Assembly (NCBI GenBank): GCA_035541195.1
Contig: DATKNU010000126.1
Location: 1-40,881 of the forward strand
Length of the DNA stretch: 40,881 nt
Source: a bacterium
Lineage (GTDB): Bacteria > Oederibacteriota > Muellerivitia > Muellerivitales > Muellerivitaceae
Reading direction: 5' to 3'
The stretch's first letter is position 1. Each line of letters starts with the position of its first letter. The translations under genes and the position numbers were made by a program. Under the pieces are notes generated by a model. It was not told the origin of the DNA and searched no databases. It worked only from the letters and a program-made list of their open reading frames with translations. Positions 829 through 30,503 of this stretch are shown in pieces.

Positions 829-856
829 TTGCGGACCTGTGGATTTCTCTTATAAT
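829..856 (+). promoter_or_regulatory. Putative sigma70-type promoter upstream of dnaN (TTGCGG-16 nt-TATAAT)
   Basis: -35 TTGCGG at 829-834 and a perfect -10 TATAAT at 851-856, with a 16-nt spacer. The spacer contains the reverse AAATCCACA box at 838-846. Confidence 0.4.
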
Positions 857-1021
857 ACCCCCAATTTATTCCCATGGATTTTCCGGCTAAAACCCTGACA
901 GGGAATCAATTCCCGGATGATTTACACATATCCTCAACGCCCACTACTGCTACTCTTCTTGTAAATTTAAAAGTCTTTTAAAGTAAAAGCTTTAGAGCCT
1001 TACTTCCCCAAGGAGCCTTTC

Positions 1022-5284: not shown

Positions 5285-5716
5285 ATGTCCACCCACCCCA
5301 AGGAAAACCGCCTGACCATCGAGATGTCCATCATGTCCTTCGAGACGGACTACCAGGGCATCGTGAATAACACCGAATTCATCCGTTTTCTGGAGCGGGT
5401 GCGCTACGCCCTTTCCAAGAAATTAGGTTTCTCCTTCAAGCAGGTCCGCTCCTCCAAACTCTGGACCGTCATGGCCCATGTCGAAGTCAATTACGTCTCG
5501 CCGGCGCGCTTTGAGGACGTCATGTTGGGCACCGGTTGGGTGGAAAAGATGGGGCGAAGCTCGCTCACCATCGGTTATGACTTCCGCCTGAAAGGCTCTA
5601 AGCGGCTTATCGCGGACGCCCGCCAAGTGGTGGTGTTCGTGGACAGCGCGACCCTCAAACCCACCCCCATCCCGCCGAAAATACGCCATAAAATCAACGG
5701 CTTCCTTTCCCGCTGA
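5285..5716 (+). CDS. Hotdog-fold acyl-CoA thioesterase (4HBT/YbgC-like)
   Basis: 143 aa. The N-terminal catalytic-region pattern SFETDYQGIVNNTEFIRFLE and the size fit the 4HBT family. TATACT at 5273-5278 lies 6 nt before the ATG. Confidence 0.7.
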   Translation: MSTHPKENRLTIEMSIMSFETDYQGIVNNTEFIRFLERVRYALSKKLGFSFKQVRSSKLWTVMAHVEVNYVSPARFEDVMLGTGWVEKMGRSSLTIGYDFRLKGSKRLIADARQVVVFVDSATLKPTPIPPKIRHKINGFLSR

Positions 5717-5800
5717 CCTTCCAGGCCGGCCCGCTGGCCCCTTGTAAAAGGCCCGCTTTTCAAGGTATGTTGAATATTCCAATCCGCTTAAGGAACCCCC

Positions 5801-15770: not shown

Positions 15771-15826
15771 ACCGGGGACAGGAAAAGAGCTAAAAAAACT
15801 TTTAATTCGCTTTTGTTTTTGGGTTT

Positions 15827-15850
15827 TTAGACGGAAAAGAAACTAAAAAC
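15827..15850. repeat. Direct repeat copy 1 (TTAGACGGAAAAGAAACTAAAAAC) in the AT-rich spacer
   Basis: Matches copy 2 at 18 of the first 21 positions. It is followed by hairpin GTGGGT-aaaaatg-ACCCAC (15856-15874) and ATGAACC (15875). Confidence 0.6.
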
Positions 15851-15962
15851 AAAAAGTGGGTAAAAATGACCCACATGAACCTTCCTTTGTAATTTAAAAG
15901 CGATTCAAGTTATGATTCCCTCGATTGAGCGGCTTTTTAAACCCTTAACAATCCATCGGGCC

Positions 15963-15985
15963 TTAGACAGAAAAACAACTAAAGC
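15963..15985. repeat. Direct repeat copy 2 (TTAGACAGAAAAACAACTAAAGC)
   Basis: Lies 136 bp downstream of copy 1. It is followed by ATGAACC (15995) and hairpin ACCCCA-cttggat-TGGGGT (15999-16017). Confidence 0.6.
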
Positions 15986-16088
15986 GGACATCGGATGAAC
16001 CCCACTTGGATTGGGGTATAAACGTTAAACCGATTTTCGCGGCAAGTTACGGTTCCAGACTTATCTTTATTATTAAACGGAGAACCCT

Positions 16089-17507
16089 TTGGCGGTTGTT
16101 TTCGGAAAAGATACCTTCATCGTTTGCCGCAATAGCCAAGGCGCCGAAATCCGGGCGACATCCCTTCGGCTCACCCGCTACCTAGTGGTCTTTGAGGTTT
16201 ACAACCCCTATAGCATCCTCCAGTTGTCCGAAGTGCTCATCGATTTCAAAATTTTCATGAATGACAAGATGGCCTACTCGGGCCGGGCCGTGGTCTCCAA
16301 TTTGGTGAACACGGGCACGATCCTCATTTGTGAGGCTTCCCTGGAAGACGGCTGGGTGGACGTGGACATCTTCTCGTCCATGTTCACCCCGGGCATGATC
16401 CGCAACGAGTTCGGCGAGTTCCTCCGGGAATGGGACAAGATCCACCAGGTGACCAACGAGTACAAGGTCATTATCTCGGACATGCAGACCTTCCTCACGG
16501 ACTTGAGGGGATGGATGGACCAGGTGGAATTGGGCATTCGGTCCCAACCCTCCCGGGACAAATTGCAGATGGAACAGGAAGTCATCAAGGAACTCCAAGA
16601 ACCGGTTTCCCCGACCATCGGGGCGGTTTTCAAGAAGTTCGAGCAAATGTCCCGCCAAGTGCCCGAAGACCTTCAAATGATCCACCGGGCCTATGGCCGC
16701 CGCCAGATCCACCCCCTGGTGCTTTGTTCCCCCTTCGTCTACCGGGTTTTCCATAAGCCCCTGGGCTACGCGGGGGACTATGAGATGGTCAACATGATGA
16801 TCCGGGACCCCTTCGAGGGGGCTTCCCTTTTCGCCAAGGTGCTCAATTACCAATTCCTCATGCAGGCGCCTTGCGAGGCCCACCGTAACCGCATCCTTTA
16901 CCTGGTGGAACGGTTGCGCGAAGAAACGCTTCGAATGGTGCGCCAGGGCAAGCAGGCCAAGATCTTCAACCTGGGCTGTGGGCCGGCCTGGGAAGTGCAG
17001 CGTTTTTTGACCCAGGACGACCTGTGCGAGAAGGCCAGCCTGACCTTGATGGATTTCAACGACGAAACCCTGGAATACACCACCCGGGTCTTGAACGACC
17101 TGAAGATGAAACAGCGCGTCAACCCCGACATCCAAATGGTCAAGCGCTCGGTGAACCAGGTGCTCAAGGACGCCGCCAAGGAAAGCGCCTCGGGCACCCA
17201 GGGGCCCTATTACGACTTCCTCTATTGCGCCGGTCTTTTTGATTACCTGTCGGACCGCATCTGCAAGAAACTCCTCGATTATTTTTATTCCCACCTGGCC
17301 CCCGGCGGGCTGCTCGTGGCCACCAACGTGGACGCCTCCAACCCCATCCAATCCGTGATGGAATGTTTCCTGGAATGGCATTTGGTCTACCGTGACCAGG
17401 CCGGGTTCCTGGCGTTGAAACCCGACGCGGCCCCGGCGGAAAACTGCCGAGTCAGCGCGGACGCGACGGGCGTCAATATTTTCCTGGAAGTGCGCAAGCC
17501 CGAGTGA
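16089..17507 (+). CDS. Class I SAM-dependent methyltransferase with a ~100-aa N-terminal beta-rich domain; PhcB-like candidate signal synthase
   Basis: 472 aa with a TTG start and GGAG 6 nt upstream. Methyltransferase motifs: IFNLGCGPAWEV (motif I), LMDFNDETLEY (acidic motif II), YDFLYCAGLFDYLSD and LAPGGLLVATNV. It is followed by a membrane kinase and a REC-kinase-like gene, as in phcBSR. The family assignment comes from architecture and memory, not from a search. Confidence 0.6.
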   Translation: MAVVFGKDTFIVCRNSQGAEIRATSLRLTRYLVVFEVYNPYSILQLSEVLIDFKIFMNDKMAYSGRAVVSNLVNTGTILICEASLEDGWVDVDIFSSMFTPGMIRNEFGEFLREWDKIHQVTNEYKVIISDMQTFLTDLRGWMDQVELGIRSQPSRDKLQMEQEVIKELQEPVSPTIGAVFKKFEQMSRQVPEDLQMIHRAYGRRQIHPLVLCSPFVYRVFHKPLGYAGDYEMVNMMIRDPFEGASLFAKVLNYQFLMQAPCEAHRNRILYLVERLREETLRMVRQGKQAKIFNLGCGPAWEVQRFLTQDDLCEKASLTLMDFNDETLEYTTRVLNDLKMKQRVNPDIQMVKRSVNQVLKDAAKESASGTQGPYYDFLYCAGLFDYLSDRICKKLLDYFYSHLAPGGLLVATNVDASNPIQSVMECFLEWHLVYRDQAGFLALKPDAAPAENCRVSADATGVNIFLEVRKPE

Positions 17508-17532
17508 TTTTGAAGCCGCGAGGATAAGCCGG

Positions 17533-20181
17533 ATGCGAAAGACCGAACCGATCTTAAAAGGGCCCGAGATGTTGGCCGCCTTCCAAGCGGAGGACGCGCA
17601 AGTGCGCCTGTCCAACATCCGTATCGGCTGTTATTTCGTCATTTTCGGCATGCCGGGCGGCACGTCCCTGGATCAGCAGGTTTATCCCGCCATGGTGCCT
17701 TATTTCCTCAAAGTGCGCCTGATTTGCGGCTTCTTGGGCCTCGTGACCCTGGGGCTGCTTTACCTGCCCTTCGCGAAGAAACACCTGAGGCTCTTTGGCG
17801 TCATCCTGCCCCTGCTTCCCGTGGGTTGCATTTCCTGGATGATTTACTCGACCGAAGGCATCGCCTCGCCCTATTACGCCGGCATCCTGATGACCATTTT
17901 GGCCGTGGGGTTGGTTTGGTCCTGGACCTTCCTGGAAAACCTCACCACGGGGATCCTCAGCATCGGGACTTATTACCTGGCCTGCCGCCTGCACGGCCCG
18001 GCGGACATCGCGCACGGCATCGGCTACAACAATTTTTATTTCCTGGTGTTGGTGGATCTGCTGGTCATTTTGATGGGTTATTTCAACGAGCAGCTGCGCC
18101 TGCGGGAATTCGCCCTGCGGTTTGAGCTCAACCAGAACAAGCAAAAGCTCGAGGAATCCAACCGCAAGCTGGTGGAGCTGGACCAGATGAAGAGCCGGTT
18201 TTTCGCCAATATCAGCCACGAACTGCGCACGCCGCTGACGCTTCTCATCGGCCCCCTGGAAAGCCTCCAGCAAAATAAGGCCGCCTGGATGGATGAGGAA
18301 ACCAAGTCCACCCTCAAGATGATGCAGGGCAATTCCATGAGGCTGCTCAAGCTCATCAACGACTTGCTCGACTTGGTGAAGATGGAATCGGGGAGGATGG
18401 AGATCAAAAAAGAGCCCGTGGAAATGGAATCCTTCCTCAAGGGGTTGGTCCAATCCGTGACCCCCGCCGCCCAGGACAAGCGGGTGAAGCTTTCGCTCGT
18501 CACCCGGGACTTGGCCACGGTGCTTTTGGACCGGGACAAACTGGAGAAAATGGTGCTGAACCTCGCCTTCAACGCCATCAAGTTCACGCCCTCGGGCGGG
18601 AAGGTGGAGGTGAGCGCTTGGCGGGAAGGGCCGTCGATCGCCTTAAGGGTGAAGGACACGGGCGTGGGGATCTCGACCCAGAATCTTCCCTTCATCTTTG
18701 ACCGCTTTTGGCAGGCCGATTCCTCGGCCAACCGTAAATACCAGGGGACGGGCATCGGGTTGGCGTTGGTGAAGGAACTCGCGGAGGTCCAGGGCGGCCG
18801 GGTTTCGGTGGAAAGCCAACTGGGCCAGGGCACCACCATGACGGTCACTTTGCCCTATGAGGAAGCCTCGGTCCCGGTTGCGGCTTTGTCCCATGCCGCC
18901 GGGGCCGAGGAGCCCCCCGCCCCCGAGCCCGACGAGTGGCTCTCCAAGCTTTACCGCCGCGCGGAGCTTTTCCCCACCCTCACGGCCCTGCAGGATACGA
19001 TGCGCGCGGACTCCTACGCGCCGGGCCGCAAGCCCAAACTTTTGGTGGCCGACGACGAGCCGGACATGCTGGGCTTCCTCAAGATCCAGCTCCAGAAACA
19101 ATACGAGGTGGTGGAAGCCACCGACGGCCAGCAGGCTCTGGAAAAAGCCCGGCAATTTTTGCCCGACCTCATCTTGCTCGACATGATGATGCCCGAAAAG
19201 GACGGCATTGAGGTTTGTCGGGAACTCAAGAACCAAGTTTCCACCCAGGCCATCCCGATTATTTTGCTCACCGCCCGGGCGGACGACGAGACCAAGATGC
19301 GGGCGCTGGAGACCGGCGCCAGCGACTTTTTGTCCAAGCCCTTCTCCAGCACCGAATTGCACGTTCGGGTCAAGAATTTGGTCGAATCCCACCATTATCA
19401 ACGGGATTTGGCCCGGGAGAAAAATGCACTGGAATCGACCTTGGAGCAACTGAAGGAAACCGAGGGGCAGTTGGTGCAAAACGAGAAGATGGCGTCCCTG
19501 GGCCGTTTGTCGGCGGGCCTCATCCATGAAATCAATAATCCCCTTAACTATGCGGCCCAGGCCCTGTATGTTCTAAGGACAAAAAAAGATCAATTGCCCG
19601 AGGCGGAGCGCGCGGGCTACGCCGAAGTCTTGGCGGACATCGAGGACGGCATCCAGCGGGTGAAGCGCATCGTGACGGACCTGAGGACCTTCACCCATCC
19701 CCATATGGGCGGCGGCAAGGACTTGGTGGAGGTGCGCGCGGTGGTGGAGACCGCCGCGCGGTTCTTGAGCCACGATTTGAGGGATCCGGTGAAGCTGGAA
19801 ATGGACATCCCGGCGGACCAAACCATGCAGGCGGACCGCAATAAGATGGTGCAGGTTTTCATCAACCTGATCCAAAACGCCTGCGACGCCCTGAAGGACA
19901 AAAAATTCCCCGAGGGGGAAGGGCCCCGGATTTGGGTCGAGGCTCGGGAAGAAAAGCAAAGGGTCCTCATCCGGGTGCGGGACAACGGCACGGGCATCGA
20001 CCCCAAGATTTTGGACAAGATTTTCGACCCCTTCTTTACCACCAAGGACGTGGGCCAGGGCATGGGATTGGGGTTGAGCCTTTGTTTCAGGATCCTGCAG
20101 GAACAGGAAGGCCGTTTATCCGTGAAGAGTGAGTTGGGAAAGGGAGCCGAGTTTACGCTTGATCTGCCCGCGCGGGCCTGA
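17533..20181 (+). CDS. Membrane hybrid sensor kinase with tandem kinase cores (TM sensor - HisKA/HATPase - REC - HisKA/HATPase)
   Basis: 882 aa. The N-terminal ~190 aa carry about 5-6 TM segments and no large periplasmic loop. HK1: SRFFANISHELRTPLTLL, LNLAFNAIKFT, YQGTGIGLALVKELAEVQGG. REC: KLLVADDEPDMLGFLK, DLILLDMMMPEKDGIEVC, LSKPFSSTEL. HK2: MASLGRLSAGLIHEINNPLNYA, FINLIQNACDAL, DVGQGMGLGLSLCFRI. Confidence 0.9.
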   Translation: MRKTEPILKGPEMLAAFQAEDAQVRLSNIRIGCYFVIFGMPGGTSLDQQVYPAMVPYFLKVRLICGFLGLVTLGLLYLPFAKKHLRLFGVILPLLPVGCISWMIYSTEGIASPYYAGILMTILAVGLVWSWTFLENLTTGILSIGTYYLACRLHGPADIAHGIGYNNFYFLVLVDLLVILMGYFNEQLRLREFALRFELNQNKQKLEESNRKLVELDQMKSRFFANISHELRTPLTLLIGPLESLQQNKAAWMDEETKSTLKMMQGNSMRLLKLINDLLDLVKMESGRMEIKKEPVEMESFLKGLVQSVTPAAQDKRVKLSLVTRDLATVLLDRDKLEKMVLNLAFNAIKFTPSGGKVEVSAWREGPSIALRVKDTGVGISTQNLPFIFDRFWQADSSANRKYQGTGIGLALVKELAEVQGGRVSVESQLGQGTTMTVTLPYEEASVPVAALSHAAGAEEPPAPEPDEWLSKLYRRAELFPTLTALQDTMRADSYAPGRKPKLLVADDEPDMLGFLKIQLQKQYEVVEATDGQQALEKARQFLPDLILLDMMMPEKDGIEVCRELKNQVSTQAIPIILLTARADDETKMRALETGASDFLSKPFSSTELHVRVKNLVESHHYQRDLAREKNALESTLEQLKETEGQLVQNEKMASLGRLSAGLIHEINNPLNYAAQALYVLRTKKDQLPEAERAGYAEVLADIEDGIQRVKRIVTDLRTFTHPHMGGGKDLVEVRAVVETAARFLSHDLRDPVKLEMDIPADQTMQADRNKMVQVFINLIQNACDALKDKKFPEGEGPRIWVEAREEKQRVLIRVRDNGTGIDPKILDKIFDPFFTTKDVGQGMGLGLSLCFRILQEQEGRLSVKSELGKGAEFTLDLPARA

Positions 20182-20214
20182 GCAAGCCAACGTTTTGACG
20201 CCAAGGAGAAGTTC

Positions 20215-21477
20215 ATGGACGCTTTTTACGACTACAAAAAATACTACATTCTTTACGTGGACGACGAGGAGAAGTCCCTCAAGTATTTCCGGCAGACCTT
20301 CGGGGACAAGTTCCCGATCCTGACGGCGCCCAGCGCCGAGGAGGGCCTGAGGCTCTTGCGGGAAAACCTAGATAAAACCGCGGTGCTCATGACCGACCAG
20401 CGCATGCCCGGGGAAAAGGGGATCCAGTTTCTGGAGAAGGTCCGCCAGATCAACCCCCGGATCCTCCGGATCCTGGTCACGGCTTATTCGGACCTGGAAA
20501 CGGCCATCGAATCCGTCAACACGGGGGCCATCTATAAATACGTCACCAAGCCCTGGGACATTCCCCAATTGGAGAACACCCTTCGGCGCGGAATCGAGTT
20601 TTTCATCGTGCAAAGCGAGCGCGACCAGCTGCTGCGGGAAAAGATGTCGGTGCTGCACAACACCATGATGACCGACCGCATTTTGAGCTTGGGGATCTTG
20701 GCCACCGGCCTCAGCCACCATATCCGCAATTCCATGGTGGCGGTCAAGACCTTCCTGGATTTGGCGCCCAAGAAGCTCAAAGAGGAGAACATCGACCTGG
20801 AACAGCTGCGCAATCCCGACTTCTGGAAGGACTATTACAAGAAGGTCCAAACCCAGATGGACAAGGTGGCTTTTCTTTTGAGCGACCTTTGGGAAGCCTC
20901 CGAGAAACCCAAGTATGATTTTCCCGACGAGGTGAAGCTCCAAGAAGTGGTGGACCAGGCCCTGGCCAAGTCGCAAAGCGCCTTGACGGCCAAGAAAATC
21001 AAGGTGGAGAACAAGGTGCCGGCGGCGCTTCCCGCCCTGAAGGTGGATGGCGCCAAGTTCCACCGACTGTTTGAGCTCCTGCTCCAGGATGAGGCCGCGT
21101 CCTTGCCCGAGGGGGGCCAGGTCGAGATCTCGGCCCAGGTGCTGGGCCCTTCCCAGGGCCCGGCGGAAATCGAGGTCAAGCTCTCCGACAACGGGCCCGG
21201 CCTCTCGCCCGAGACCCTGCAATCGGTCTTTGATCCCTTTTTCGTGCGCAGCCAGAATCCCCAGGATTTCGGCCTGCACCTCATGACCTGCTTTTTCATC
21301 GTGTACCACCATGGGGGTAAGATCGAGGCTTCCAGCGAACCCGGCAAGGGCACCATCTTCACCTTGCGCATCCCGGTGAACCCGCTTTCCAACGGGTTGG
21401 TCCAGACCGAGCAGGATTTCCTGCACCGGATTTTGCTGAATGAAAACCTCTGGGAACGGCTCCTGGCGGAAAATTAA
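20215..21477 (+). CDS. Response-regulator receiver fused to a degenerate histidine-kinase-like domain (PhcR-like architecture)
   Basis: 420 aa with SD AAGGAGA. REC: ILYVDDEEKSLKYF, VLMTDQRMPGEKG, YKYVTKPWD. H-box-like GLSHHIRNSMVAV. G1/F boxes are present (SDNGPGLSPETLQSVFDPFF). The N-box Asn is missing (FELLLQDEAASL) and G2 is degenerate (DFGLHLMTCFF). Confidence 0.85.
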   Translation: MDAFYDYKKYYILYVDDEEKSLKYFRQTFGDKFPILTAPSAEEGLRLLRENLDKTAVLMTDQRMPGEKGIQFLEKVRQINPRILRILVTAYSDLETAIESVNTGAIYKYVTKPWDIPQLENTLRRGIEFFIVQSERDQLLREKMSVLHNTMMTDRILSLGILATGLSHHIRNSMVAVKTFLDLAPKKLKEENIDLEQLRNPDFWKDYYKKVQTQMDKVAFLLSDLWEASEKPKYDFPDEVKLQEVVDQALAKSQSALTAKKIKVENKVPAALPALKVDGAKFHRLFELLLQDEAASLPEGGQVEISAQVLGPSQGPAEIEVKLSDNGPGLSPETLQSVFDPFFVRSQNPQDFGLHLMTCFFIVYHHGGKIEASSEPGKGTIFTLRIPVNPLSNGLVQTEQDFLHRILLNENLWERLLAEN

Positions 21478-21489
21478 GGAGGAGGCGGC

Positions 21490-22830
21490 ATGGCCACGAT
21501 CACCTATCCGGAGGGGCCCAAGACCTCCTATCCGCTCCAGCACCTTTTGGCCCTGGCCAAGGATCCCATCGGCTTCATTTCCCGGCAATCCCAAGGGAAC
21601 CGGAAAATCATTTATTTCCCCATGGGCGGCCGCCCCACCTATATTTTGAACCATCCGGATTTGGTCCAGGAAGTCCTGGCCACCCAGCACCAAAACTTCA
21701 CCAAGGGCAGCGGGCTCATCCGCCTCAAGCAGATCCTGGGGGACGGCCTCATCACCAGCGAGGATCCCCTGCACCTGCGCCAACGCCGCCTGTCCCAGCC
21801 GGCCTTCCACCGCCAGCGCATCGCCGCCTACGGCGCCGTCATGTCGGACTACGCCTATCAAGCCCGGGAACGATGGAAAGAAGGCGAGACGATCGACATC
21901 GAACCCGAGACCGCCCGGATCACCATGGCCATCGTGGGCAAGACGCTGCTCAACGCGGACGTAGAAGGTGAGGCCCACGAGATCGCCGAGGCGGTGGACA
22001 CCATGCGCGAGCGGTTCCACATCGCGGTTTTCCCCGGCATGCAGCTGTTGGACAAACTGCCCCTGCCCCATAATTTCCGCTTCAACAAGGCCCGCCAGCG
22101 GCTCAATGACACCATTTACCGCATGATCGCCGAGCGCCGTACCTCGGGCGCGGACCGGGGGGACCTCTTGTCCATGCTGATCCTGGCCCGGGACACCGAG
22201 GGGGACCAAGGGGGCATGACGGACCTGCAGGTGCGGGACGAAGCCATGACCATCTTCCTGGCCGGTTACGAGACGATCACCAACACCCTGACCTGGACCT
22301 GGTACCTTTTGTCCCAGCATCCGGACATCGAGGCCAAGTTCCACGCCGAACTCGACGGGCTGAACGGCAAGGTCCCCGCCATGGAGGACCTGGCCCGGCT
22401 GCCTTATACCCAAAAGATCCTCACGGAAGCCATGCGGCTTTATCCGGCGGCTTGGATGATCGCCCGGGAACCCTTGGAAGAATGCCAAGTCGGGGGCTAC
22501 ACCATCCCCGCCAACTCCATCCTCTTCATGTGCCCCTACACGATCCACCGGCTCCCCGAATATTATCCTGACCCCGAGAAGTTCGATCCCGAGCGTTGGG
22601 AAGGCAAGGCCAAGGATTCCCGGCCGCGTTTCGCTTATTTCCCCTTTGGCGGCGGGCCCCGCCAATGCATCGGCGAGCCTTACGCCCTCATGGAAGGGGC
22701 GCTGATCCTGGCCACCATCGCCCAGAAATGGAAATTGCGCATGGTGGAAGGCCATCCGGTGACGATCCAAGCCAATGTCACCATTCGTCCCAAGTACGGC
22801 ATGCCCATGGTGCTTGAGAAGCGGGCATAA
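21490..22830 (+). CDS. Cytochrome P450 monooxygenase (CYP4/CYP102/CYP110-like heme loop)
   Basis: 446 aa with SD AAGGAGGAGG, starting 12 nt after the previous stop. I-helix FLAGYETITNTLTW, ExxR in KILTEAMRLYPAAW, PERF-like FDPERWEG, and Cys-heme loop YFPFGGGPRQCIGEPYALMEG. Confidence 0.93.
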   Translation: MATITYPEGPKTSYPLQHLLALAKDPIGFISRQSQGNRKIIYFPMGGRPTYILNHPDLVQEVLATQHQNFTKGSGLIRLKQILGDGLITSEDPLHLRQRRLSQPAFHRQRIAAYGAVMSDYAYQARERWKEGETIDIEPETARITMAIVGKTLLNADVEGEAHEIAEAVDTMRERFHIAVFPGMQLLDKLPLPHNFRFNKARQRLNDTIYRMIAERRTSGADRGDLLSMLILARDTEGDQGGMTDLQVRDEAMTIFLAGYETITNTLTWTWYLLSQHPDIEAKFHAELDGLNGKVPAMEDLARLPYTQKILTEAMRLYPAAWMIAREPLEECQVGGYTIPANSILFMCPYTIHRLPEYYPDPEKFDPERWEGKAKDSRPRFAYFPFGGGPRQCIGEPYALMEGALILATIAQKWKLRMVEGHPVTIQANVTIRPKYGMPMVLEKRA

Positions 22831-22864
22831 AAAAGCCCTCGGACCAAAAGGTCCAAGGGCTTTT
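22831..22864. terminator. Bidirectional intrinsic terminator between the P450 gene (+) and the HEAT-repeat gene (-)
   Basis: AAAAAGCCCTCGGACC, loop aaaa, GGTCCAAGGGCTTTT. The stem is 12 bp with one mismatch, with an A-run on the left and a T-run on the right. Confidence 0.8.
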
Positions 22865-22894
22865 GAGGCGGCTCGGCGAGGATCCCCGCCGGTT

Positions 22895-25039
22895 TTAAGA
22901 GGCTTGGGCTTTGGCGTGGATGATCTTGTCCAAGGCTTCCTGTAGTTCGGGGTTTTTCTCCGAGGCCAACTGCTCGAAAAATTCCCAGACCGCCGGTTGG
23001 TTGATTTCCCCCATGGCCTCCAAGGCCGCCAACCTCACGGGCAAGGGCTCGTTGGCGCCCCGGAAGAGGGATTTTTTCTTGGCCATCTCCTCCAAGAAGG
23101 GAAGGTACTCGGCCTGGCCGAATTTCCCCAAGGTCCGGCAAACCTCGATGGAAAAACGCTCGTGGTCCGGTCCCCGGCTTTGGCGCAGCTTCAAGGCCTT
23201 GATCAAGACCGGCGCGGCCTGGGTAAAACCGATCTTGCCCAGCACCTTGGCCGCTTCCACCGCGATTTCTTCCGAGTCATCGAACAGGGCCAGCCTTAAA
23301 GCCGGCCCGCCCTCCGGACTTCCGATTTGTTCGATCAGGCCGATGAGGTTGAGTTTCAGTTCCCGGTCGCCTTTGGAAAGCCAGGGCGTCAGTTGGAAGG
23401 CCAGGGCGGCGTCCATGCCGGCGTTGCGGATCACGGGCATCAGCGGCTTGAGGTCCTCCAGTCTTTCCACCTCGGCCACCCGCCGGGCCAAAACCGACCG
23501 CAAGGGATCGCCCATTTCGGCGAAGAGCCCCAGCCACATGCCTTTTTCCTCGGGATTGGCCTTTTGGTAGTCTTCCAAAAGAAGCGGCGCCGCCATTTCG
23601 CCCAACAAGGGGAAATGGTCCAACCGTCCCGCCTGGTGGGCGCAAAGGGTCATTTGGCGGATCAGTTCGGGATTGGAACGCTCGAAAAGCCAATGGCGGG
23701 CGATGGAGGCCCTTTCGGGGAAAGCCGCCGAGGGCTCGTCGTCGTCCGCGTGGAAATGCAGGGTCGAGAAAAGGCTCAAGGCCGAGCTCTCGTTGTGGGT
23801 TTGAAGGGCCGGTTCCACCAGGTCCCAGGCCGAAAGCAGGGCGCTCTGGTACAAGCCGGGGTTTTTCTCCGCGCCCAAAAGCTGGCAAAGCTGCTCCAAG
23901 ACTTTCCCCAGAAGCGAGGGATTGGCCACCCAGGGGCGGGCGTCCATCAAGTGGGTGAGGGCCACCCGGCGCTCGGACTCGGTGCGGTTGAGGCCCTCGG
24001 CCAAAGCCGTGACGGTTTTTTCCACTAGGTCGCCCTTGCCCTGGGCGCTCCAAAGCCCCAAGCAGTCGTTCACCAATCCTTCGGTGGCGGGATCAAAGAG
24101 CACCACGGTCCATTGGTGGCGCACGGCGATTTCCATCAAGGGCATCATGGCTAAAACGGCGTCGTTATCGACCACTTCCCCCTGGGAGGTACGGAACCAC
24201 TGGACGATCCCCTTCAAGTCCGGCGCGGCGGTTTCCAGCCGGTCCAGCAGGTGGTTGAAGAATTGGGAATAGGCTTTGTCCGTCGCGGGTTTGTCCTCGG
24301 TGGCCCCGGGGGTTTTCTTCAGCAGCCTGGAAAAATGCCAGGCCTCGGCCACCGAGGCTAACAGCGCGGCGCTCAGGGATTCGGAGGCGCCCGGGGCCGG
24401 GGTTTGCGTCGGGGCCGGGAGGGCGGCGGTCGCTTCCGCTTCCTCCATTTGGACCGCGGACAAGTTGGGCTGGAGCGACTCGGGGGAGAAGGTCTCCTCG
24501 ACTTCGATTTGGGCTTCCAGCGTCACGGGCTCGGGCAACGCGATGGGGGGAACTTCCACCTCGGCCAAGGGCGCGACTTCCGGAACGGGCGTGGGTTCGA
24601 CAGCTTCCACGGCCTCTAAAACGAAATCCGCCGCTTCCACTTGCCGCAGGTGTTCCCAAGGCACGCTGGGCGTTTGGTTTTCCTCGAAGGGGAAGGCCAT
24701 CTGGCGTAGCCAGGAAACCCATTCGTTGTAGGCCAAGCCGTTCTCGACCAAAAGCCCGGCCCAATTTTTTTCTTGGAAAATTTTCAAAAGATCGCCGGTG
24801 TCGCCCAGGGGCGAACCATTCACGAAAAGGGCGCCATCCTTCTGGTAAAGCACCAGCGGGTTGACGGTGTTGAGGAGCCGCTGGAGGTCTTTATGAAGCT
24901 TGCGGATGGCGCCGGCCACAAAGGGGCTGTCGCTGGAATAAAACGAAAGGTAGCTGAGCGCCGAGCGGAAATCCCGGGCGAGCTGAACTAAAAAGGATTG
25001 TTGAAGCGGGGGAATGGCGGAAACTTGAACTTGTTGCAT
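22895..25039 (-). CDS. Large HEAT/ARM-repeat protein with an acidic Pro/Glu/Val/Ala linker; function unknown
   Basis: I start it at ATG 25039 (SD AAGGAGAGG directly upstream) rather than 25204. The C-terminal HEAT-like repeats include GGPALRLALFDDSEEIAVEAAKVLGKIGF and VRLAALEAMGEINQPAV. The low-complexity segment is VEAVEAVEPTPVPEVAPLAEVEVPPIALPEPVTLEAQIEVEE. Confidence 0.65.
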   Translation of the reverse strand: MQQVQVSAIPPLQQSFLVQLARDFRSALSYLSFYSSDSPFVAGAIRKLHKDLQRLLNTVNPLVLYQKDGALFVNGSPLGDTGDLLKIFQEKNWAGLLVENGLAYNEWVSWLRQMAFPFEENQTPSVPWEHLRQVEAADFVLEAVEAVEPTPVPEVAPLAEVEVPPIALPEPVTLEAQIEVEETFSPESLQPNLSAVQMEEAEATAALPAPTQTPAPGASESLSAALLASVAEAWHFSRLLKKTPGATEDKPATDKAYSQFFNHLLDRLETAAPDLKGIVQWFRTSQGEVVDNDAVLAMMPLMEIAVRHQWTVVLFDPATEGLVNDCLGLWSAQGKGDLVEKTVTALAEGLNRTESERRVALTHLMDARPWVANPSLLGKVLEQLCQLLGAEKNPGLYQSALLSAWDLVEPALQTHNESSALSLFSTLHFHADDDEPSAAFPERASIARHWLFERSNPELIRQMTLCAHQAGRLDHFPLLGEMAAPLLLEDYQKANPEEKGMWLGLFAEMGDPLRSVLARRVAEVERLEDLKPLMPVIRNAGMDAALAFQLTPWLSKGDRELKLNLIGLIEQIGSPEGGPALRLALFDDSEEIAVEAAKVLGKIGFTQAAPVLIKALKLRQSRGPDHERFSIEVCRTLGKFGQAEYLPFLEEMAKKKSLFRGANEPLPVRLAALEAMGEINQPAVWEFFEQLASEKNPELQEALDKIIHAKAQAS

Positions 25040-25250
25040 GGCCTCTCCTTGGGGGATTTGGGAATGCAACCGTATTTCAAGCGGTTGGGACGGGACTTCT
25101 CTTGCCTTTAGGATAGGCCGGGCCCGAGCCGCTCTTGCACTTGAAAGCGTCAAAAAGTGGGAATGTCGTTTTCCCTGGCTTGGCAAAAAACGGACGGGGT
25201 TCAAGTGTTACTTCAAGGCGTTGGGCGGGGGTCCGCTTAAAGACCATTCC

Positions 25251-27332: not shown

Positions 27333-30300
27333 ATGAGTTTTTCCCTTTATCTCGGCCCCTACCAGCCTTTCCTGGAACAAGCCTTGGCCGCGGCGGTGGA
27401 AAAATTCCGCTTGGGGAAACCCCACGATCCCCTGGTGGTGCTGGTGCCCAACCGCGCCTTGGTGCGCCACCTGGGCGAAACCCTCGCCCGCCTCAATGGG
27501 TCGCTCTTCAACCTGCGGGTCCTGACCTTGCACCAATACCTCGCCGAATTCACCGAGGAAAAATGGCTCAAGGAAAACTCCCGGCTTTTGCCCGAGTCCC
27601 TCGTGCCCTGGGCGCTCAAGGAAAATGCCCGCTCCGGGGCCGTCCCTAAAGCCAATCCTTTCCGGGCCGTTGAGCCAACCCCCGGTTTTTACAAAACCCT
27701 CCGGGCCACCCTCTCGGAACTGCGCCAAGGGGGTTTTACGCCGGGGACCTTGGCGGACTCGGCCAAGGCCATCGCCAAAGACAAGTCCCGGCGCCGGCTC
27801 TCGGAAAAACTGGGGTCCTTCGCCGGGGTGCTGGAGCGAAACGAGGCCTGGAAAAAGGAAAAAGGCTGGAAGGACCTGGAAGACCTTTATACCGACGCCC
27901 TTGCCCTGCCTTCCCCCGCGGGCTCGATTTGGACCTACGGTTTTTACGACGCTTCCGTCCTGCAGCAAAAAGTGCTTCGGCATCTTTGCGCCGCCCCGGC
28001 TTCCCATTGGTTCATCCCTTATGAAGACCATCCGGCTTTTGAGTATGCCAAACCCTTTGTGGCCTGGGCCAAGGCCCTGGGAAAAGTGGAACAAGAAGCA
28101 AGCTACGCCGGCGCCGGGAGCGGGCCCTTGGGAAGGCTCCAGCAACATTTGTTCCTCGAGGAAAATCCCGCGCCGCCCGAGGGGGCCCCGCCCGCCTTCG
28201 CGGATTCGGACGTGAAGATCCTGCTTTGCCCGGGCGAGCCCCGGGAAACCCGGGAAGCCGCGCGGGCCCTGACCGAGGAAGCGAAAAGGCGCGAAACGAC
28301 TTTTCCCCGATGCGCCCTGCTCTTTCGCCAATTGGAAAGCTACCGGCGCATGATCGTCCCCGCTTTCGAGGGGCAAGGCCTTCCCTTGGCCAAAAAACCC
28401 GCGGTCTTCCTCATGGAAACCCCCGAGGCCAAATCGCTCCTGCTCTTGCTCGATTGCTTCCAAAGGGATTTTCCCCGGGAAACCCTGATGGATTTCCTGG
28501 CCGGCCCCAACCTTTCCCCCGAAGGGTTCGGCTTGGGCGAGGAGGATTGGAACCCGCATCTTTGGGACCAGGTTTCCAAGGAAGCCGCGGTGGTGGAAGG
28601 CAAAGAAAGCTGGTTGGACCGGCTGCAAGCCTACCAAAAGCTCAAAGCCGAGGCCGCGCGGGACGAGGAAGAGGGGGACCCGGACGAGCGGTCGCTTTCG
28701 CTTTTGCGCACCCAGGTCCTCAAGGAACTTTTCGACCAGGCCAAGCGCTTTGAGAAGGCCAAGGCTTGGTCCCAGAAGGCCCAGACCCTTTTTGACCTGG
28801 CCGAAAAAGTTTTCCTGCCTTCCAAAGCCAAGACCGAACTGACCACCCTTCGGCGGGGCGTGGAAATCCTCGCGAAGGACCTTTCCCAAGTCGCGGGCGA
28901 GGACCTGGGGGCCCTTTTGTCCGACCTGATGGAAGAAGTCAAGATCCCCTGGGACGCCCCCGAGGCGGGCGGGGTGGAGGTGACGGACCTCATGCAGGCG
29001 CGGGGCGTGCCCTTTGACGTGGTGGTCTTGCCCGGGCTGGTCGAGCAGGGCTTTCCCCGCCTGCCCCGGCCCGATCCCTTGCTCTTGGATGAGGAACGGC
29101 GGATCCTCAATGGCCGTTACCCCGGCGAGGCCAAAATTCCCGAAAAGGCCGAGGGGCGCCTGGAAGAAAAGCTCTTGTTCCTCTTGGCGGCGCGAAGCGC
29201 CAAACAATGCCTCATCCTGACCGCGTCCCACCTGCATCCGGGCACCGGCGCGCCCCGCATCCCCTCCAGTTACCTGCATGAGACGATCCGGGCCGTCACG
29301 GGCAAGCGCCTCACCCGATGGGACGAGGTCCCCTTCGTTAAAAAAGTCGCGGTGTCGGATTGGGTCAGGACCGATGGGGAAGAAAAGGTGGACGACTTGG
29401 AAGAAATCCTCAGCCGCTTTGAGGAGGCCCGCCGGGGAAATCCCCTGCCCGCCCAGGCCTACGCGGGCGAAAAACCCTTCTTTGAGGAAGCCAGGAAGCT
29501 CCTCAAGGAACGCCAGGGAAGCCGAAAGTTCACTGCCTATGACGGCGTTTTTGAGGGCGCCGAGCCGGTTCAAAAACTGCGGCAGGATTATTCGCTCAAG
29601 GACAAAACGCTTTCGGCCTCCCGTTTGGAAACTTACGCGGCCTGCCCCCTGCGCTATTTCTACCGCTATGTGCTGGGGCTGAAGGTGCATCCGGAGCCCG
29701 AGAGGGTCTTCCAGCTCGACCCGGCCGAAAAGGGCAATTTGATGCACAACGTCCTCGAAGAAACCCTGGGCCGGGGCGTTGAAGAAGGCTGGCTCAAGAC
29801 CCGCGACGGGGAAAAGGCCTTGATGGCCCTTGAGGAAGAAACCCAAAAGGCCTTCACGAGGCTTGAGAAGGAAGGCGTCCCCGGGTCCCCCGCGCTCTGG
29901 CAATGGAGCCGCTTCATCGTGCGCAAGGATCTGGAGCGGGAACTGAAGAAGGTCTTGAAAGAGAAGGAATGGACCCCGGTGGATTTTGAGAAGGCTTTCG
30001 GCCGGGAAGGCCAACCCGAGGTGTCCTTCACCACCCGCGTGGGCACCTTCCGTTTGGAGGGCTTCATGGACCGGGTGGACCTTCATAGCGACGGCAGGCG
30101 CCTTCGAGTGGTGGACTATAAGTCGGGAACCAAGGAGGGCTTCAAGAACGACAGCGTGAAGGAAGGCACGAAGATCCAAATGCCCCTTTACCTCTGGGCC
30201 TGCCGCACGCTTTATCCCGGCAAAGCCCCCGAAGAGGCGGTTTATGAGTTCCTGACCGCCAAGGGCGGCTATGGGGAGACGACCTTCGACGCCAAAGACC

Positions 30301-30503
30301 CGGCCAGAGTCGAGGAACCCTTGAAAGCGCTTTTGACGACCGCAGCCGAGGCGGTGGAGCAGGGTTTGTTCCCAGCGGCCGCCAAGGCCTGTGAGCGCTG
30401 TGATTACCGCACGCTTTGCGGTCCCGGAGCCGAGAAGCGGGGAGAACGGAAAAGGGAAGATTCAAAGGTCGAGGAGTATTTCAAGCTGGAGAAGCTTTTA
30501 TGA
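27333..30503 (+). CDS. addB: AddB-like helicase-nuclease subunit: degenerate N-terminal motor without P-loop, C-terminal Fe-S PD-(D/E)XK nuclease
   Basis: 1056 aa with SD AAGGA. C-terminal nuclease: RLETYAACPLRYFYRYVLGL, GFMDRVDLHSDGRRLRVVDYKSG, KIQMPLYLWA, CERCDYRTLC. It lies upstream of a UvrD-nuclease (AddA-like) gene. I find no GxxxxGK[ST] in the protein. Confidence 0.75.
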   Translation: MSFSLYLGPYQPFLEQALAAAVEKFRLGKPHDPLVVLVPNRALVRHLGETLARLNGSLFNLRVLTLHQYLAEFTEEKWLKENSRLLPESLVPWALKENARSGAVPKANPFRAVEPTPGFYKTLRATLSELRQGGFTPGTLADSAKAIAKDKSRRRLSEKLGSFAGVLERNEAWKKEKGWKDLEDLYTDALALPSPAGSIWTYGFYDASVLQQKVLRHLCAAPASHWFIPYEDHPAFEYAKPFVAWAKALGKVEQEASYAGAGSGPLGRLQQHLFLEENPAPPEGAPPAFADSDVKILLCPGEPRETREAARALTEEAKRRETTFPRCALLFRQLESYRRMIVPAFEGQGLPLAKKPAVFLMETPEAKSLLLLLDCFQRDFPRETLMDFLAGPNLSPEGFGLGEEDWNPHLWDQVSKEAAVVEGKESWLDRLQAYQKLKAEAARDEEEGDPDERSLSLLRTQVLKELFDQAKRFEKAKAWSQKAQTLFDLAEKVFLPSKAKTELTTLRRGVEILAKDLSQVAGEDLGALLSDLMEEVKIPWDAPEAGGVEVTDLMQARGVPFDVVVLPGLVEQGFPRLPRPDPLLLDEERRILNGRYPGEAKIPEKAEGRLEEKLLFLLAARSAKQCLILTASHLHPGTGAPRIPSSYLHETIRAVTGKRLTRWDEVPFVKKVAVSDWVRTDGEEKVDDLEEILSRFEEARRGNPLPAQAYAGEKPFFEEARKLLKERQGSRKFTAYDGVFEGAEPVQKLRQDYSLKDKTLSASRLETYAACPLRYFYRYVLGLKVHPEPERVFQLDPAEKGNLMHNVLEETLGRGVEEGWLKTRDGEKALMALEEETQKAFTRLEKEGVPGSPALWQWSRFIVRKDLERELKKVLKEKEWTPVDFEKAFGREGQPEVSFTTRVGTFRLEGFMDRVDLHSDGRRLRVVDYKSGTKEGFKNDSVKEGTKIQMPLYLWACRTLYPGKAPEEAVYEFLTAKGGYGETTFDAKDPARVEEPLKALLTTAAEAVEQGLFPAAAKACERCDYRTLCGPGAEKRGERKREDSKVEEYFKLEKLL

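Follow-up and report, generated by a model that had tools for sequence, protein, structure and literature searches.

To our knowledge, Phc signalling has been described in no bacteria other than Ralstonia, Cupriavidus and organisms closely related to them, in which virulence and symbiosis are under its control. The Cupriavidus operon has the canonical layout phcB–phcS–phcR–phcQ, in which phcS encodes a MASE8 histidine kinase, phcR a REC-histidine kinase protein and phcQ a REC protein. The signals of the PhcBSRQ systems are 3-OH-PAME and 3-OH-MAME. The Verrucomicrobiota and the candidate division FCPU426 are abundant in soil and freshwater, and we know of almost no signalling chemistry from either.

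Here we describe a relative of the Phc operon from an uncultured Verrucomicrobia-like bacterium (FCPU426/Verrucomicrobiota-like), located within a 40.9-kb stretch of DNA that was analysed as a whole and is referred to below as the window. The operon is a variant of the known Phc system. It is likely that its first three genes form a Phc-type signal/sensor module, and we favour, with modest confidence, an explanation of the whole operon as a Phc-type module for the production and sensing of a lipid signal, with a clade-specific cytochrome P450 added to it. The initial annotation of the locus, which had likened it to phcB–phcS–phcR and proposed an undescribed signalling cassette of four genes, is partly supported by these results.

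Operon layout and control elements

As first annotated, the operon comprises four co-directional genes, and the ORF coordinates (Table 1) confirm the reported gaps of 25, 33 and 12 nt between them. Shine–Dalgarno sequences were likewise found ahead of all four starts: GGAG before the TTG start codon of gene 1, followed by GAGGA, AAGGAGA and AAGGAGGAGG before genes 2, 3 and 4, respectively. The 318-nt AT-rich leader 5′ of gene 1 contains a promoter-like element, TTGTAA-N18-TATGAT. Both the block in which this lies (15771–15920) and TATAAACGTTAAAC at positions 16017–16030 are near-invariant in the intergenic regions of two related loci, L007 and L170, and we infer a promoter role for the element.

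At the other end of the operon, between the P450 stop codon and a convergent HEAT-repeat gene, folding identified a strong hairpin on both strands (positions 22831–22864; dG −26 kcal/mol, z −5.6 on the plus strand and −28.5 kcal/mol, z −7.0 on the minus strand), in line with the bidirectional terminator originally proposed. Its stability was matched by none of 200 shuffles and it has an A-run and a U-run on its sides. A consensus scan for terminators did not pick up this hairpin, which has only four U residues on the plus strand. There is no terminator in the gap between gene 3 and the P450 gene, and the GC3 of the latter (0.83) is like that of genes 1–3.

No DNA-binding regulator was found among the larger ORFs of the window, as had been noted before, and no PhcA-like LysR-type regulator was found in the window; phcA is unlinked to the phc operon in Ralstonia as well. 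An hpnCDE-like squalene cluster is located 15 kb from the P450 gene, within the window.

Table 1. Features of the operon and its flanks (nt, position in the window; aa, residue of the encoded protein)
Feature	Position (nt)	Residues (aa)	Strand	Basis or remark
Promoter-like element TTGTAA-N18-TATGAT	15887–15916		+	Consensus scan; candidate
Gene 1, PhcB-family SAM-dependent methyltransferase	16089–17507	472 aa	+	Homology to C. necator PhcB
Gene 1 PilZ-like beta-barrel	16113–16343	9–85	+	Matches PilZ folds
Gene 1 helical domain	16374–16943	96–285	+	
Gene 1 Rossmann methyltransferase domain	16956–17495	290–469	+	
Gene 2, hybrid sensor kinase	17533–20181	882 aa	+	Pfam, MASE8 annotation, PhcS alignment
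Gene 2 MASE8 membrane sensor	17581–18102	~17–190	+	Precomputed annotation and PhcS alignment
Gene 2 kinase 1, H229	18187–18861	219–443	+	Pfam
Gene 2 receiver	19042–19371	504–613	+	Pfam
Gene 2 kinase 2, H665	19480–20172	650–880	+	Pfam
Gene 3, receiver plus degenerate kinase-like domain	20215–21477	420 aa	+	Pfam REC and HATPase_c
Gene 3 REC	20248–20583	12–123	+	
Gene 3 DHp/CA-like domain	20695–21381	161–389	+	
Gene 4, cytochrome P450	21490–22830	446 aa	+	Pfam p450, 2.9e-81
Gene 4 heme loop FGGGPRQCIG	22645–22674	386–395	+	
Bidirectional intrinsic terminator	22831–22868		.	Ends operon and convergent HEAT-repeat gene

Homology and conservation of genes 1–3

By sequence, the gene 1 product is a full-length member of the PhcB family. 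C. necator PhcB (P0234) aligns with it over 460 of 472 residues (E 8e-119) at 40% identity, a level that does not fix the substrate, whilst Cupriavidus P0171 and a copy from a Paraburkholderia plasmid align end to end at 38–39% identity; E values against the Cupriavidus and Paraburkholderia proteins range from about 1e-113 to 1e-119. These sequences serve as proxies for R. solanacearum PhcB (RSc2735), Ralstonia being absent from the matches listed. Cupriavidus phcB and phcS are regarded as orthologues of the Ralstonia genes (PMC6989110), and the sole bridge to Ralstonia here is a published phcB primer that translates to YKIKHYLD, similar to KVKTYLD of Cupriavidus PhcB. The family alignment is colinear with about 100 invariant columns, and the motifs RNSQG, YNPYSI, KPLGYAGDYE, LGCGP (SAM motif I, aa 295–299) and YCAGLFDY are invariant across phyla. 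Pfam Methyltransf_23, Methyltransf_12 and Methyltransf_25 match weakly, under their cut-offs. In the AF2 model of the protein (pLDDT 83), the Rossmann domain resembles small-molecule methyltransferases, and the N-terminal domain matches PilZ folds.

Arg22, whose equivalence to the Ralstonia numbering is assumed from the Cupriavidus sequence, is invariant in both gene 1 alignments (A1 and A4), and an R22C change in R. solanacearum PhcB lowers signal output (PMC6989110). That a PilZ-like N-terminal domain of PhcB carries this important arginine points to a regulatory input to signal synthesis that is as yet unexplored and would hold for the plant pathogen too. The system is unstudied but not wholly undescribed, as homologues of gene 1 already carry the JGI automatic label of PhcB orthologue / 3-OH-PAME biosynthesis protein.

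The likeness of the next two genes to their Phc counterparts is also true homology and not architecture alone. The earlier description of gene 2 as a polytopic membrane kinase lacking a periplasmic domain is upheld by the five to six hydrophobic segments and short loops at aa ~29–184, but it had missed both the receiver and the complete second kinase core, the full architecture being MASE8-HisKA/HATPase-REC-HisKA/HATPase. Full-length Cupriavidus PhcS aligns with aa 8–444 (27%, 2e-33 by blastp) and the PhcS kinase core aligns again, more strongly, with aa 629–879 (39%, 1.5e-51). Precomputed annotation places MASE8 on both the gene 2 protein and Cupriavidus PhcS, which also have the motif SPYY(A/V)G in common in this region; a separate Pfam scan did not recover MASE8 in gene 2, the assignment resting on that annotation and the PhcS alignment. 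The H, N, G1, F and G2 boxes of both kinases, together with the receiver residues, are kept in 65 orthologues. The best NCBIfam match is the LvrA model (311 bits against a cut-off of 1200).

Gene 3 combines features of two Phc proteins. Over the REC and linker it is most similar to PhcQ (40% identity, 8e-43), ahead of PhcR (35%), and its C-terminal ATPase region matches PhcR. Within the receiver, D16, D17, D61 and K112 show no variation, and T89 is found in 63 of 65 orthologues, as is R155 further downstream. The kinase-like domain has neither the N-box Asn nor an intact G2 box, 13 of the 65 orthologues lack the DHp His, and the domain is probably inactive. Gene 3 also matches LvrB structures and the NCBIfam LvrB model (67 bits against a cut-off of 500). 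A second REC-HisKA-HATPase gene, present in 23 of 48 Verrucomicrobiota relatives, is absent from the window.

Relatives of the three-gene module are present in at least 593 species-level genomes, mostly of Verrucomicrobiota and FCPU426, and the family comprises 596 clusters at 50% identity (E<=1e-30). Among 80 species-level genomes fetched, the order methyltransferase–histidine kinase–response regulator is kept in all usable loci. The module is core-chromosomal, located near oriC, vertically inherited and very widespread. A gene for a FadL/TodX outer-membrane channel for hydrophobic compounds is found in the flanks of 40 loci, and in 24 of the 50 loci in which the methyltransferase gene has an immediate co-directional upstream neighbour, that neighbour is the FadL/TodX gene. 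The presence of a FadL-type channel in the flanks thus supports a lipid ligand.

The P450 and its linkage to the module

The P450 has the heme loop FGGGPRQCIG and the PERW motif (aa 367–370) reported previously, as well as EAMR (ExxR, aa 313–316) and AGYET (aa 258–262). Its best solved relative is CYP170A1 (PDB 3dbg/3el3; E 3.6e-75), followed by CYP97A3 (2.6e-53), CYP46A1 (about 1e-41) and CYP102 (about 1e-37 to 1e-41). The NCBIfam albaflavenone monooxygenase model matches at 1e-91 (308 bits against a 700-bit equivalog cut-off) and the CYP152 fatty-acid peroxygenase model at 1e-5 only. Membership of the fatty-acid hydroxylase class (CYP102/CYP4/CYP110) was considered and rejected, CYP170A1, CYP97A3 and CYP46A1 all being closer than CYP102, and the label of fatty-acid-type P450 given initially is not the best one. 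CYP170A1 is the albaflavenone monooxygenase of Streptomyces coelicolor, a terpenoid oxidase with a sesquiterpene substrate. No ferredoxin or reductase partner for the P450 is encoded within the operon.

The P450 lies outside the conserved module and is operon-linked in one small clade only, in two gene orders. In the first (order A: the window, L007, L170 and L176) it follows gene 3, whilst in the second (order B: L174 and the contig of P0243) it is located between the methyltransferase and kinase genes. In L174, a 9-nt gap with a Shine–Dalgarno sequence separates the methyltransferase gene from that of the P450, whose stop codon overlaps the start of the kinase gene. On a simple NJ tree of the methyltransferases, the P450-bearing operons, a handful of metagenomic contigs, are monophyletic. 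Their sister clade has an orthologous FAD oxidoreductase upstream of the methyltransferase gene or between it and the kinase gene, with SDR/ketoreductase and PPTase genes as well in one locus (L014). Given this linkage in two orders, and an oxidoreductase in equivalent slots in the sister clade, it is plausible that the P450 tailors the signal; for functional coupling of any kind to the module, we put the case at just short of evenly balanced.

The P450 could instead be a passenger that, in one lineage, came to lie behind the last gene of the operon and is co-transcribed by accident, its real work being elsewhere, for instance in the oxidation of terpenoids or xenobiotics. No P450 was found within 10 kb of the module in any of the 80 species-level relatives, nor in L001, despite flanking genes identical to those of the window; a P450 of 71% identity has no phc gene linked to it, and none of 80 homologues of 32–54% identity adjoins a phcB-like gene, the neighbours of these more distant homologues being heterogeneous. 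All of this is what a passenger would predict, and it tells against the earlier notion of a self-contained cassette: of the four-gene synteny then expected, the first three genes keep theirs in all usable loci, the P450 only in the small clade and in two orders. CYP170A1 as the best characterised relative, and the squalene cluster nearby, also suit a passenger. Against this, the linkage has outlasted rearrangement, order B places the P450 between synthase and sensor with a 9-nt gap and a stop/start overlap, both kinds of slot are taken by a different oxidoreductase in the sister clade and the GC3 of the P450 is native. We regard the passenger as a serious but somewhat unlikely explanation.

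Proposed function and comparison with known systems

What the sequences establish directly is homology, which domains are present, which residues are conserved, synteny and the linkage of the P450 in two orders; what the enzymes do chemically, which ligand is sensed, which way phosphoryl groups pass and what the P450 acts on are our inferences from these. Judging from PhcB-family homology, gene 1 would most likely catalyse the SAM-dependent methyl-esterification of a (hydroxy)fatty-acid-like carboxylate, giving a membrane-permeant product that is diffusible or volatile. The MASE8 domain of gene 2 would sense this hydrophobic product inside the membrane and control kinase 1, which would phosphorylate the internal receiver and so turn on the PhcS-like kinase 2 as a Rec-controlled histidine kinase, a relay suggested by the intact motifs and the LvrB/PhcR paradigm. 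Kinase 2 would then phosphorylate the invariant Asp61 of gene 3. Having a kinase-like output without ATP-binding residues, gene 3 therefore probably acts by protein–protein contact with an unlinked regulator, as PhcQ/PhcR act on PhcA in Ralstonia. The P450 would be a clade-specific, co-transcribed accessory enzyme, most likely oxidising the signal, or a precursor of it, on the acyl chain, to give a lineage-specific signal or, alternatively, tuned signal turnover.

The module might serve membrane-lipid or fatty-acid homeostasis rather than cell–cell signalling, with the methyltransferase modifying or detoxifying a lipid, perhaps under nucleotide control through its PilZ-like domain, and the MASE8 kinase monitoring membrane state or imported fatty acids. 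A very widely distributed, vertically inherited core-chromosomal location near oriC would suit such a circuit, as would the PilZ-like fold, and a neighbouring FadL gene would be as much in place for fatty-acid uptake as for signal passage. The sole studied members, however, in Ralstonia and (by orthology) Cupriavidus, are signal synthase/sensor pairs, the functional R22 and all family motifs are kept, and a synthase beside a sensor is the typical arrangement of autoinducer systems. Homeostasis is thus unlikely.

Returning to the Phc-type signalling module, the P450 might be functionally linked but degradative, oxidising the signal to inactivate or clear it in a form of self quorum-quenching or signal reset. 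CYP102A1, to which the window P450 is distantly related, oxidises acyl-homoserine lactones at omega-1 to omega-3, lowering their activity (review PMC3355433). In order A the P450 follows the sensing genes, which would suit feedback, but in order B it is translationally coupled right behind the synthase, and we consider degradation improbable. The scheme first proposed, in which the P450 hydroxylates a plain fatty acid for the methyltransferase to esterify, finds some encouragement in the co-transcription of the four genes and in a broad P450 clan that includes CYP102, but is very improbable: Ralstonia, Cupriavidus and nearly all of the module genomes lack the P450, so the substrate of the family is independent of it, 3-hydroxyacyl intermediates are supplied by fatty-acid and lipid A synthesis, and hydroxylation by bacterial P450s of this clan is typically directed to positions close to the omega end rather than to C3.

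The same synthase–sensor module, with its functional residues conserved, is core-chromosomal in hundreds of Verrucomicrobiota/FCPU426 species, and different lineages attach different oxidoreductases to it. Its sensors form a natural series, from plain PhcS-like to double-kinase, of use for studies of intramembrane sensing and Rec-controlled kinases. We would go further only as doubtful speculation: Phc-type methyl-ester signalling could be a major communication system of Verrucomicrobiota/FCPU426, with outer-membrane passage through FadL-type channels, a P450-oxidised fatty-acid methyl ester in the window's clade and the work of an FAD desaturase/oxidase in the sister clade. If true, the P450-oxidised ester would be a new chemical class of signal, and swaps of tailoring oxidoreductases would be how lineages privatise their signals.

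Compared with the Ralstonia and Cupriavidus PhcBSRQ systems, the operon has in common a PhcB-family methyltransferase alike in three-domain layout and invariant motifs, the gene for a MASE8 intramembrane sensor kinase beside it (here following immediately), REC-plus-kinase-like regulators, the gene order and an operon without a DNA-binding regulator. It differs in the extra kinase–receiver module between MASE8 and the PhcS-type kinase core, in having a single REC/pseudokinase, PhcQ-like in REC and linker and PhcR-like in architecture, in place of PhcR and PhcQ, in the appended P450 and in its phylum. As in Leptospira LvrA/LvrB, a REC-DHp-CA protein comes after the hybrid kinase and there is no DNA-binding output. 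Rec-triggered activation of the LvrB type, a Rec-controlled kinase mechanism for which PhcR is cited as a prototype (PMC13269768), is our template for the step from the gene 2 receiver to kinase 2. The gene 2 and gene 3 scores are far under the Lvr family cut-offs, however, LvrB is an active kinase but gene 3 has degenerate ATP-binding motifs, and no methyltransferase is described in the Lvr literature examined. The P450 has the canonical heme loop, ExxR and PERW of CYP170A1, CYP97, CYP46 and CYP102, but neither the adjacent terpene synthase of CYP170A1 nor the fused reductase of CYP102.

The same logic of a synthase beside a polytopic sensor kinase without a periplasmic domain is found in the alpha-hydroxyketone systems CqsA/CqsS and LqsA/LqsS. 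There, the synthase is a PLP-dependent acyl-CoA transferase, unrelated to SAM methyltransferases, and the sensor domain differs too; as proposed for gene 2, CqsS and LqsS detect a hydrophobic ligand and feed a phosphorelay.

Operon organisation and genomic setting

The four co-directional genes described in the initial annotation, encoding a methyltransferase, a sensor kinase, a receiver fused to a kinase-like domain and a cytochrome P450, are all found on the + strand, separated by 25, 33 and 12 nt, and each is preceded by the Shine–Dalgarno sequence assigned to it. A bidirectional terminator had also been proposed at the end of the operon. This was not flagged by a consensus terminator scan; it is borne out by folding, which gives a 14–15-bp hairpin (dG −26 kcal/mol on the + strand and −28.5 kcal/mol on the − strand, z-scores −5.6 and −7.0, with 0 of 200 shuffles equally stable) flanked by an A-run and a U-run, and thus able to end transcription of the operon as well as of the convergent HEAT-repeat gene beyond it.

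Gene 1 is preceded by an AT-rich leader of 318 nt, in which a consensus scan located a promoter-like element (TTGTAA-N18-TATGAT). The leader block containing this element is almost invariant in two related loci, L007 and L170, and TATAAACGTTAAAC, further downstream, is invariant in both. Together with a hairpin in the leader (GTGGGT...ACCCAC), these conserved blocks imply either a long 5' UTR or binding sites for a regulator. An Rfam scan of the window, leader included, returned no matches.

The window belongs to the core chromosome. Its first genes are the end of dnaA and then dnaN, which places it beside the chromosomal replication origin. GC content is lower (~0.50) in the first 2 kb. At L001, a relative's locus whose methyltransferase is only 60% identical, the flanking genes of the window recur around the operon, with an M3 peptidase and a PD-(D/E)XK nuclease upstream and the HEAT protein downstream. 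Elsewhere in the window, a TPR-repeat gene of GC 0.38 and GC3 0.37 (neighbours ~0.58 and 0.75–0.83) is wedged between AddB-like and AddA-like genes; L170 has a 101-aa ORF, an HTH_3 gene and a DUF2130 gene in its place, and the slot after AddB looks like a variable insertion hot spot with foreign DNA.

Coordinates of the features discussed (in the window unless a relative's locus is named)
Feature	Coordinates	Strand	Remark
dnaA C-terminal part and complete dnaN	26-2146	+	
443-aa ORF	5423-6754	opposite to GAF/HD_5 gene	
GAF + HD_5 gene	5801-7009	+	HD-GYP-type
Gene 1 leader	15771-16088		
Conserved leader block	15771-15920		
Leader hairpin	15856-15874		
Promoter-like element	15887-15916		
Invariant leader motif	16017-16030		
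Gene 1	16089-17507	+	methyltransferase
Predicted PilZ-like barrel	16113-16343	+	gene 1 aa 9-85; also in Cupriavidus PhcB
Gene 2	17533-20181	+	sensor kinase
Gene 3	20215-21477	+	receiver fused to kinase-like domain
Gene 4	21490-22830	+	P450
Operon-end hairpin (region folded)	22826-22875	both	
Convergent HEAT-repeat gene	22895-25204	opposite to operon	
AddB-like gene	27333-30503		
TPR-repeat gene	30540-31739	+	
AddA-like gene	31792-35064		
707-aa ORF	35998-38121	−	
hpnCDE-like cluster	38118-40881	−	runs past window end
FAD enzyme, L011	139-1857		
FAD enzyme, L013	7196-8836		
FAD enzyme, L014	8031-13002		region
FadL/TodX channel gene, L023	8485-9807		example among L012-L089
FadL/TodX channel gene, L028	8542-9804		example among L012-L089
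Methyltransferase, L076	10001-11383		
Sensor, L076	from ~11380		

The PhcB-family methyltransferase

In Pfam, gene 1 has only weak class I methyltransferase matches (aa 272–433). Its homologues run to thousands, many of them carrying the JGI label for PhcB orthologues, "3-hydroxypalmitic acid methyl ester biosynthesis protein". A full-length copy on a Paraburkholderia plasmid (39% identical, with a 445-aa kinase and a pair of response regulators encoded downstream) was used as a bridge to the Cupriavidus proteins, whose genes form a canonical phcB-phcS-phcR-phcQ operon with the domain compositions MASE8-HisKA-HATPase (PhcS), REC-HisKA-HATPase (PhcR) and REC (PhcQ). R. solanacearum PhcB was not among the top 120 matches of either protein search, and the Cupriavidus and Paraburkholderia proteins stand proxy for it in all comparisons. 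Against C. necator PhcB, 460 of the 472 residues of gene 1 align at 40% identity (E 8e-119). Sixteen sequences drawn from the two groups align colinearly, and some 100 columns are invariant, including those of the motifs RNSQG, YNPYSI, KPLGYAGDYE, LGCGP (the SAM motif) and YCAGLFDY. Asked whether the enzyme groups with PhcB or with unrelated protein or rRNA methyltransferases, these data, with Cupriavidus as proxy, favour PhcB, on full-length identity and shared motifs alike. Plasmid matches from Pseudanabaena and Rhizobium were rejected as PhcB relatives: they cover only the methyltransferase half, at 23–30% identity, and thus represent a different, more distant group.

The AlphaFold model of gene 1 (pLDDT 83) comprises a β-barrel (aa 9–85), a helical domain (96–285) and a Rossmann methyltransferase domain (290–469). 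A profile search against solved structures found no structure for the family and one marginal match, to a protein-lysine methyltransferase, whilst a whole-chain Foldseek search returned generic small-molecule methyltransferases, the top match being of unknown function. As modelled, the methyltransferase fold resembles those of small-molecule enzymes and is unlike protein or rRNA methyltransferases.

Modelled alone (pLDDT 82), the N-terminal barrel matches the PilZ domains of BcsA, MrkH, PP4397, YcgR, VCA0042 and Alg44, with TM scores of 0.6–0.72 and rmsd of 2.3–3.4 Å at E-values of only 2e-3 to 5e-2. This N-terminal domain of the PhcB family, previously without an assigned function, is thus predicted to be a PilZ-type β-barrel, and it carries Arg22, invariant in the family alignment. 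In R. solanacearum, the R22C change, which lies outside the methyltransferase domain, reduces the amount of active signal, and R22 is conserved across Ralstonia, Cupriavidus and Paraburkholderia (PMC6989110). The canonical PilZ c-di-GMP motifs (RxxxR and D/NxSxxG) are not evident in the domain, and we therefore make no claim of c-di-GMP binding. About 9 kb upstream of the operon lies a GAF + HD_5 gene for a likely c-di-GMP phosphodiesterase; the ORF overlapping it on the opposite strand, which matches nothing in Pfam, is probably spurious.

Sensor kinase, receiver protein and the conserved triad

Gene 2 had been read as a membrane sensor kinase. The membrane domain and the kinase stand, but it is not a simple kinase, a receiver and a second kinase having been overlooked. 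The alignment of residues 8–444 covers Cupriavidus PhcS in full (27%, E 2e-33), membrane region and SPYY(A/V)G motif included, and the second kinase core (629–879) is closer to the PhcS core (39%, E 1.5e-51). The MASE8 assignment rests on this direct alignment and on the precomputed annotation of the exact protein, since a local Pfam scan of the N-terminus did not list the domain. Compared with PhcS, gene 2 has a classical kinase and a receiver as an insert that separates the sensor from the PhcS-type core. All catalytic motifs of both kinase cores and of the receiver are conserved across 65 orthologues. L076, from a Verrucomicrobiota MAG, has a sensor with MASE8 and the PhcS-type core only, and is a natural short form lacking the insert.

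The receiver and linker of gene 3 are nearest to PhcQ (40%, E 8e-43), then PhcR (35%), and its C-terminal ATPase domain matches PhcR. The 65 orthologues share receiver residues D16, D17, D61 and K112 without exception, and 63 of them have T89. The kinase-like domain lacks the N-box Asn and has a disrupted G2 box, and in 13 of the 65 orthologues there is no His at the phospho-acceptor position. The output domain is probably a pseudokinase. R155, conserved in 63 of 65 orthologues, aligns with Cupriavidus PhcQ R156 and is probably the equivalent of Ralstonia PhcQ R154, mutation of which to Cys has the effect of a phcQ deletion (PMC6989110).

Relatives of gene 1 occur in at least 593 genomes (scanned at one genome per species), and in an exhaustive HMMER search the number of clusters at 50% identity is 596 with a cut-off of E<=1e-30, rising to 2520 with E<=1e-10. 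The best 80 of these genomes are mostly Verrucomicrobiota MAGs, the closest, at 60–69% identity, belonging to candidate division FCPU426 (taxon labels are the MAG submitters' own). Across these 80 loci, MASE8, kinase 1, receiver and kinase 2 follow the methyltransferase in the same order and spacing wherever there is enough downstream sequence, L076 excepted, and a full-length gene 3 homologue comes directly next in 62. The synteny expected of the four genes thus holds for the first three in usable loci, but not for the P450: at none of these 80 species-level loci does one lie within 10 kb. Of the 48 loci where a co-directional gene comes after gene 3 at close spacing, 23 have another REC-HisKA-HATPase gene there, recalling the four-gene layout of phcBSRQ.

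In 24 of 50 loci the co-directional gene next upstream encodes a FadL/TodX-family outer-membrane channel. Such a gene is found in the flanks of 40 loci, nearly always within ~2 kb upstream of the methyltransferase; about half of the Verrucomicrobiota loci have it beside the PhcB-like gene, and the window has none. Channels of the FadL family transport long-chain fatty acids as well as other hydrophobic molecules. In rhizobia, one study ties them to long-chain AHL signals (PMC9938287). The association supports a lipid-like ligand independently of PhcB homology.

The cytochrome P450 and its linkage to the operon

Gene 4 encodes a canonical P450 (Pfam 2.9e-81) with the motifs AGYET and EAMR as well as the PERW motif and FGGGPRQCIG heme loop already recognised. 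Its best solved relative is 3dbg/3el3 (E 3.6e-75), which we take to be S. coelicolor CYP170A1, and the top NCBIfam match, albaflavenone monooxygenase, agrees with this; CYP97A3 (2.6e-53), CYP46A1 (~1e-41) and CYP102 (~1e-37 to 1e-41) follow. The clan proposed for the enzyme was right, but with CYP170A1 closest and CYP102 lower, "fatty-acid hydroxylase" is not the best-supported label. At the far end of the window an hpnCDE-like squalene cluster encodes an amine-oxidase-family flavoprotein (528 aa) and then two squalene/phytoene-synthase-family proteins; the adjoining 707-aa ORF has no Pfam match.

The absence of the P450 from the 80 species-level relatives and from L001 raised the possibility of a chance insertion. 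No PhcB-like gene was found in 80 metagenomic loci (557 kb in total) encoding P450 homologues of 32–54% identity, and because the neighbours of these distant homologues are heterogeneous, with no recurring partner, they permit no functional inference. Homologues at least 69% identical form a small group, below which identity falls to 60% or less, where the named matches are from Blastocatellia and other Acidobacteriota. Most of this small group lie inside phc-like operons, in two gene orders. The first, with the P450 fourth and the HEAT gene beyond it, is shared by the window, L007 (methyltransferase 93%), L170 (95%, on a contig of 325 kb) and, at far greater divergence, L176 (gene 3 67%, P450 69%, HEAT 57%). 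In the second, the P450 lies between methyltransferase and kinase, at L174 (methyltransferase 81%, P450 72%) and on the contig of protein P0243; at L174 a Shine–Dalgarno sequence and a 9-nt gap separate methyltransferase and P450, and the stop codon of the P450 gene overlaps the start of the kinase gene. A further homologue, at 71% identity, has no link to a phc-like operon. On the contig of protein P0002, from JGI sample 3300050821, a 441-aa gene lies upstream.

The P450-bearing operons are monophyletic on a simple neighbour-joining tree of the methyltransferase. Their sister clade, the FCPU426 MAGs L011, L013 and L014, carries an orthologous FAD-dependent enzyme of amine-oxidase/desaturase type (58–64% identical mutually), upstream of the methyltransferase in L011 and L013 and between methyltransferase and kinase, with a 4-nt overlap, in L014. 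L014 also has, immediately before the methyltransferase, genes for an SDR/ketoreductase and a 4'-phosphopantetheinyl transferase, a hint of ACP-linked acyl chemistry. The second order within the operon and the FAD enzyme of the sister clade weigh against chance insertion: a linkage that survives rearrangement, with another oxidoreductase in the equivalent slots, points to lineage-specific tailoring enzymes rather than passengers. The GC3 of the P450 (0.83) also matches that of genes 1–3. In this small sample of metagenomic contigs, functional coupling of the P450 to the Phc-type module is a serious possibility that falls a little short of probable, and its part in the signalling system is suggestive rather than established.

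A possible signalling route and comparison with known systems

As expected from its homology to PhcB, gene 1 would make a methyl-esterified lipid-like signal. This would be sensed in the membrane by the MASE8 domain of gene 2, driving kinase 1 to phosphorylate the internal receiver and so switch on kinase 2, the PhcS-type one, in the way that Rec-controlled kinases are activated. A recent structural study of Leptospira LvrB describes how receiver phosphorylation activates such kinases, and names PhcR as a prototype (PMC13269768); the LvrA/LvrB NCBIfam models are among the best matches for genes 2 and 3, far below their cut-offs. Kinase 2 would then phosphorylate Asp61 of gene 3, whose pseudokinase domain may act on an unlinked regulator. 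The P450 could oxidise the signal, or a precursor of it, on the acyl chain; another possibility is that it inactivates the signal, as CYP102A1 does with AHLs (PMC3355433).

By homology and synteny, the operon is a Phc-type module with a PhcB-family member at its head. Automatic annotation already labels the methyltransferase PhcB-like, though in the literature searched no relevant paper was found on Phc-type systems or PhcB outside Burkholderiaceae, or on K19620. The breadth of the family, the FadL link, the PilZ-like PhcB domain and the way accessory oxidoreductases are swapped each offer something concrete to test. Set against the Phc system of Ralstonia and Cupriavidus, the operon in the window differs in its sensor architecture, has instead a single degenerate REC-kinase protein, and adds an appended P450.
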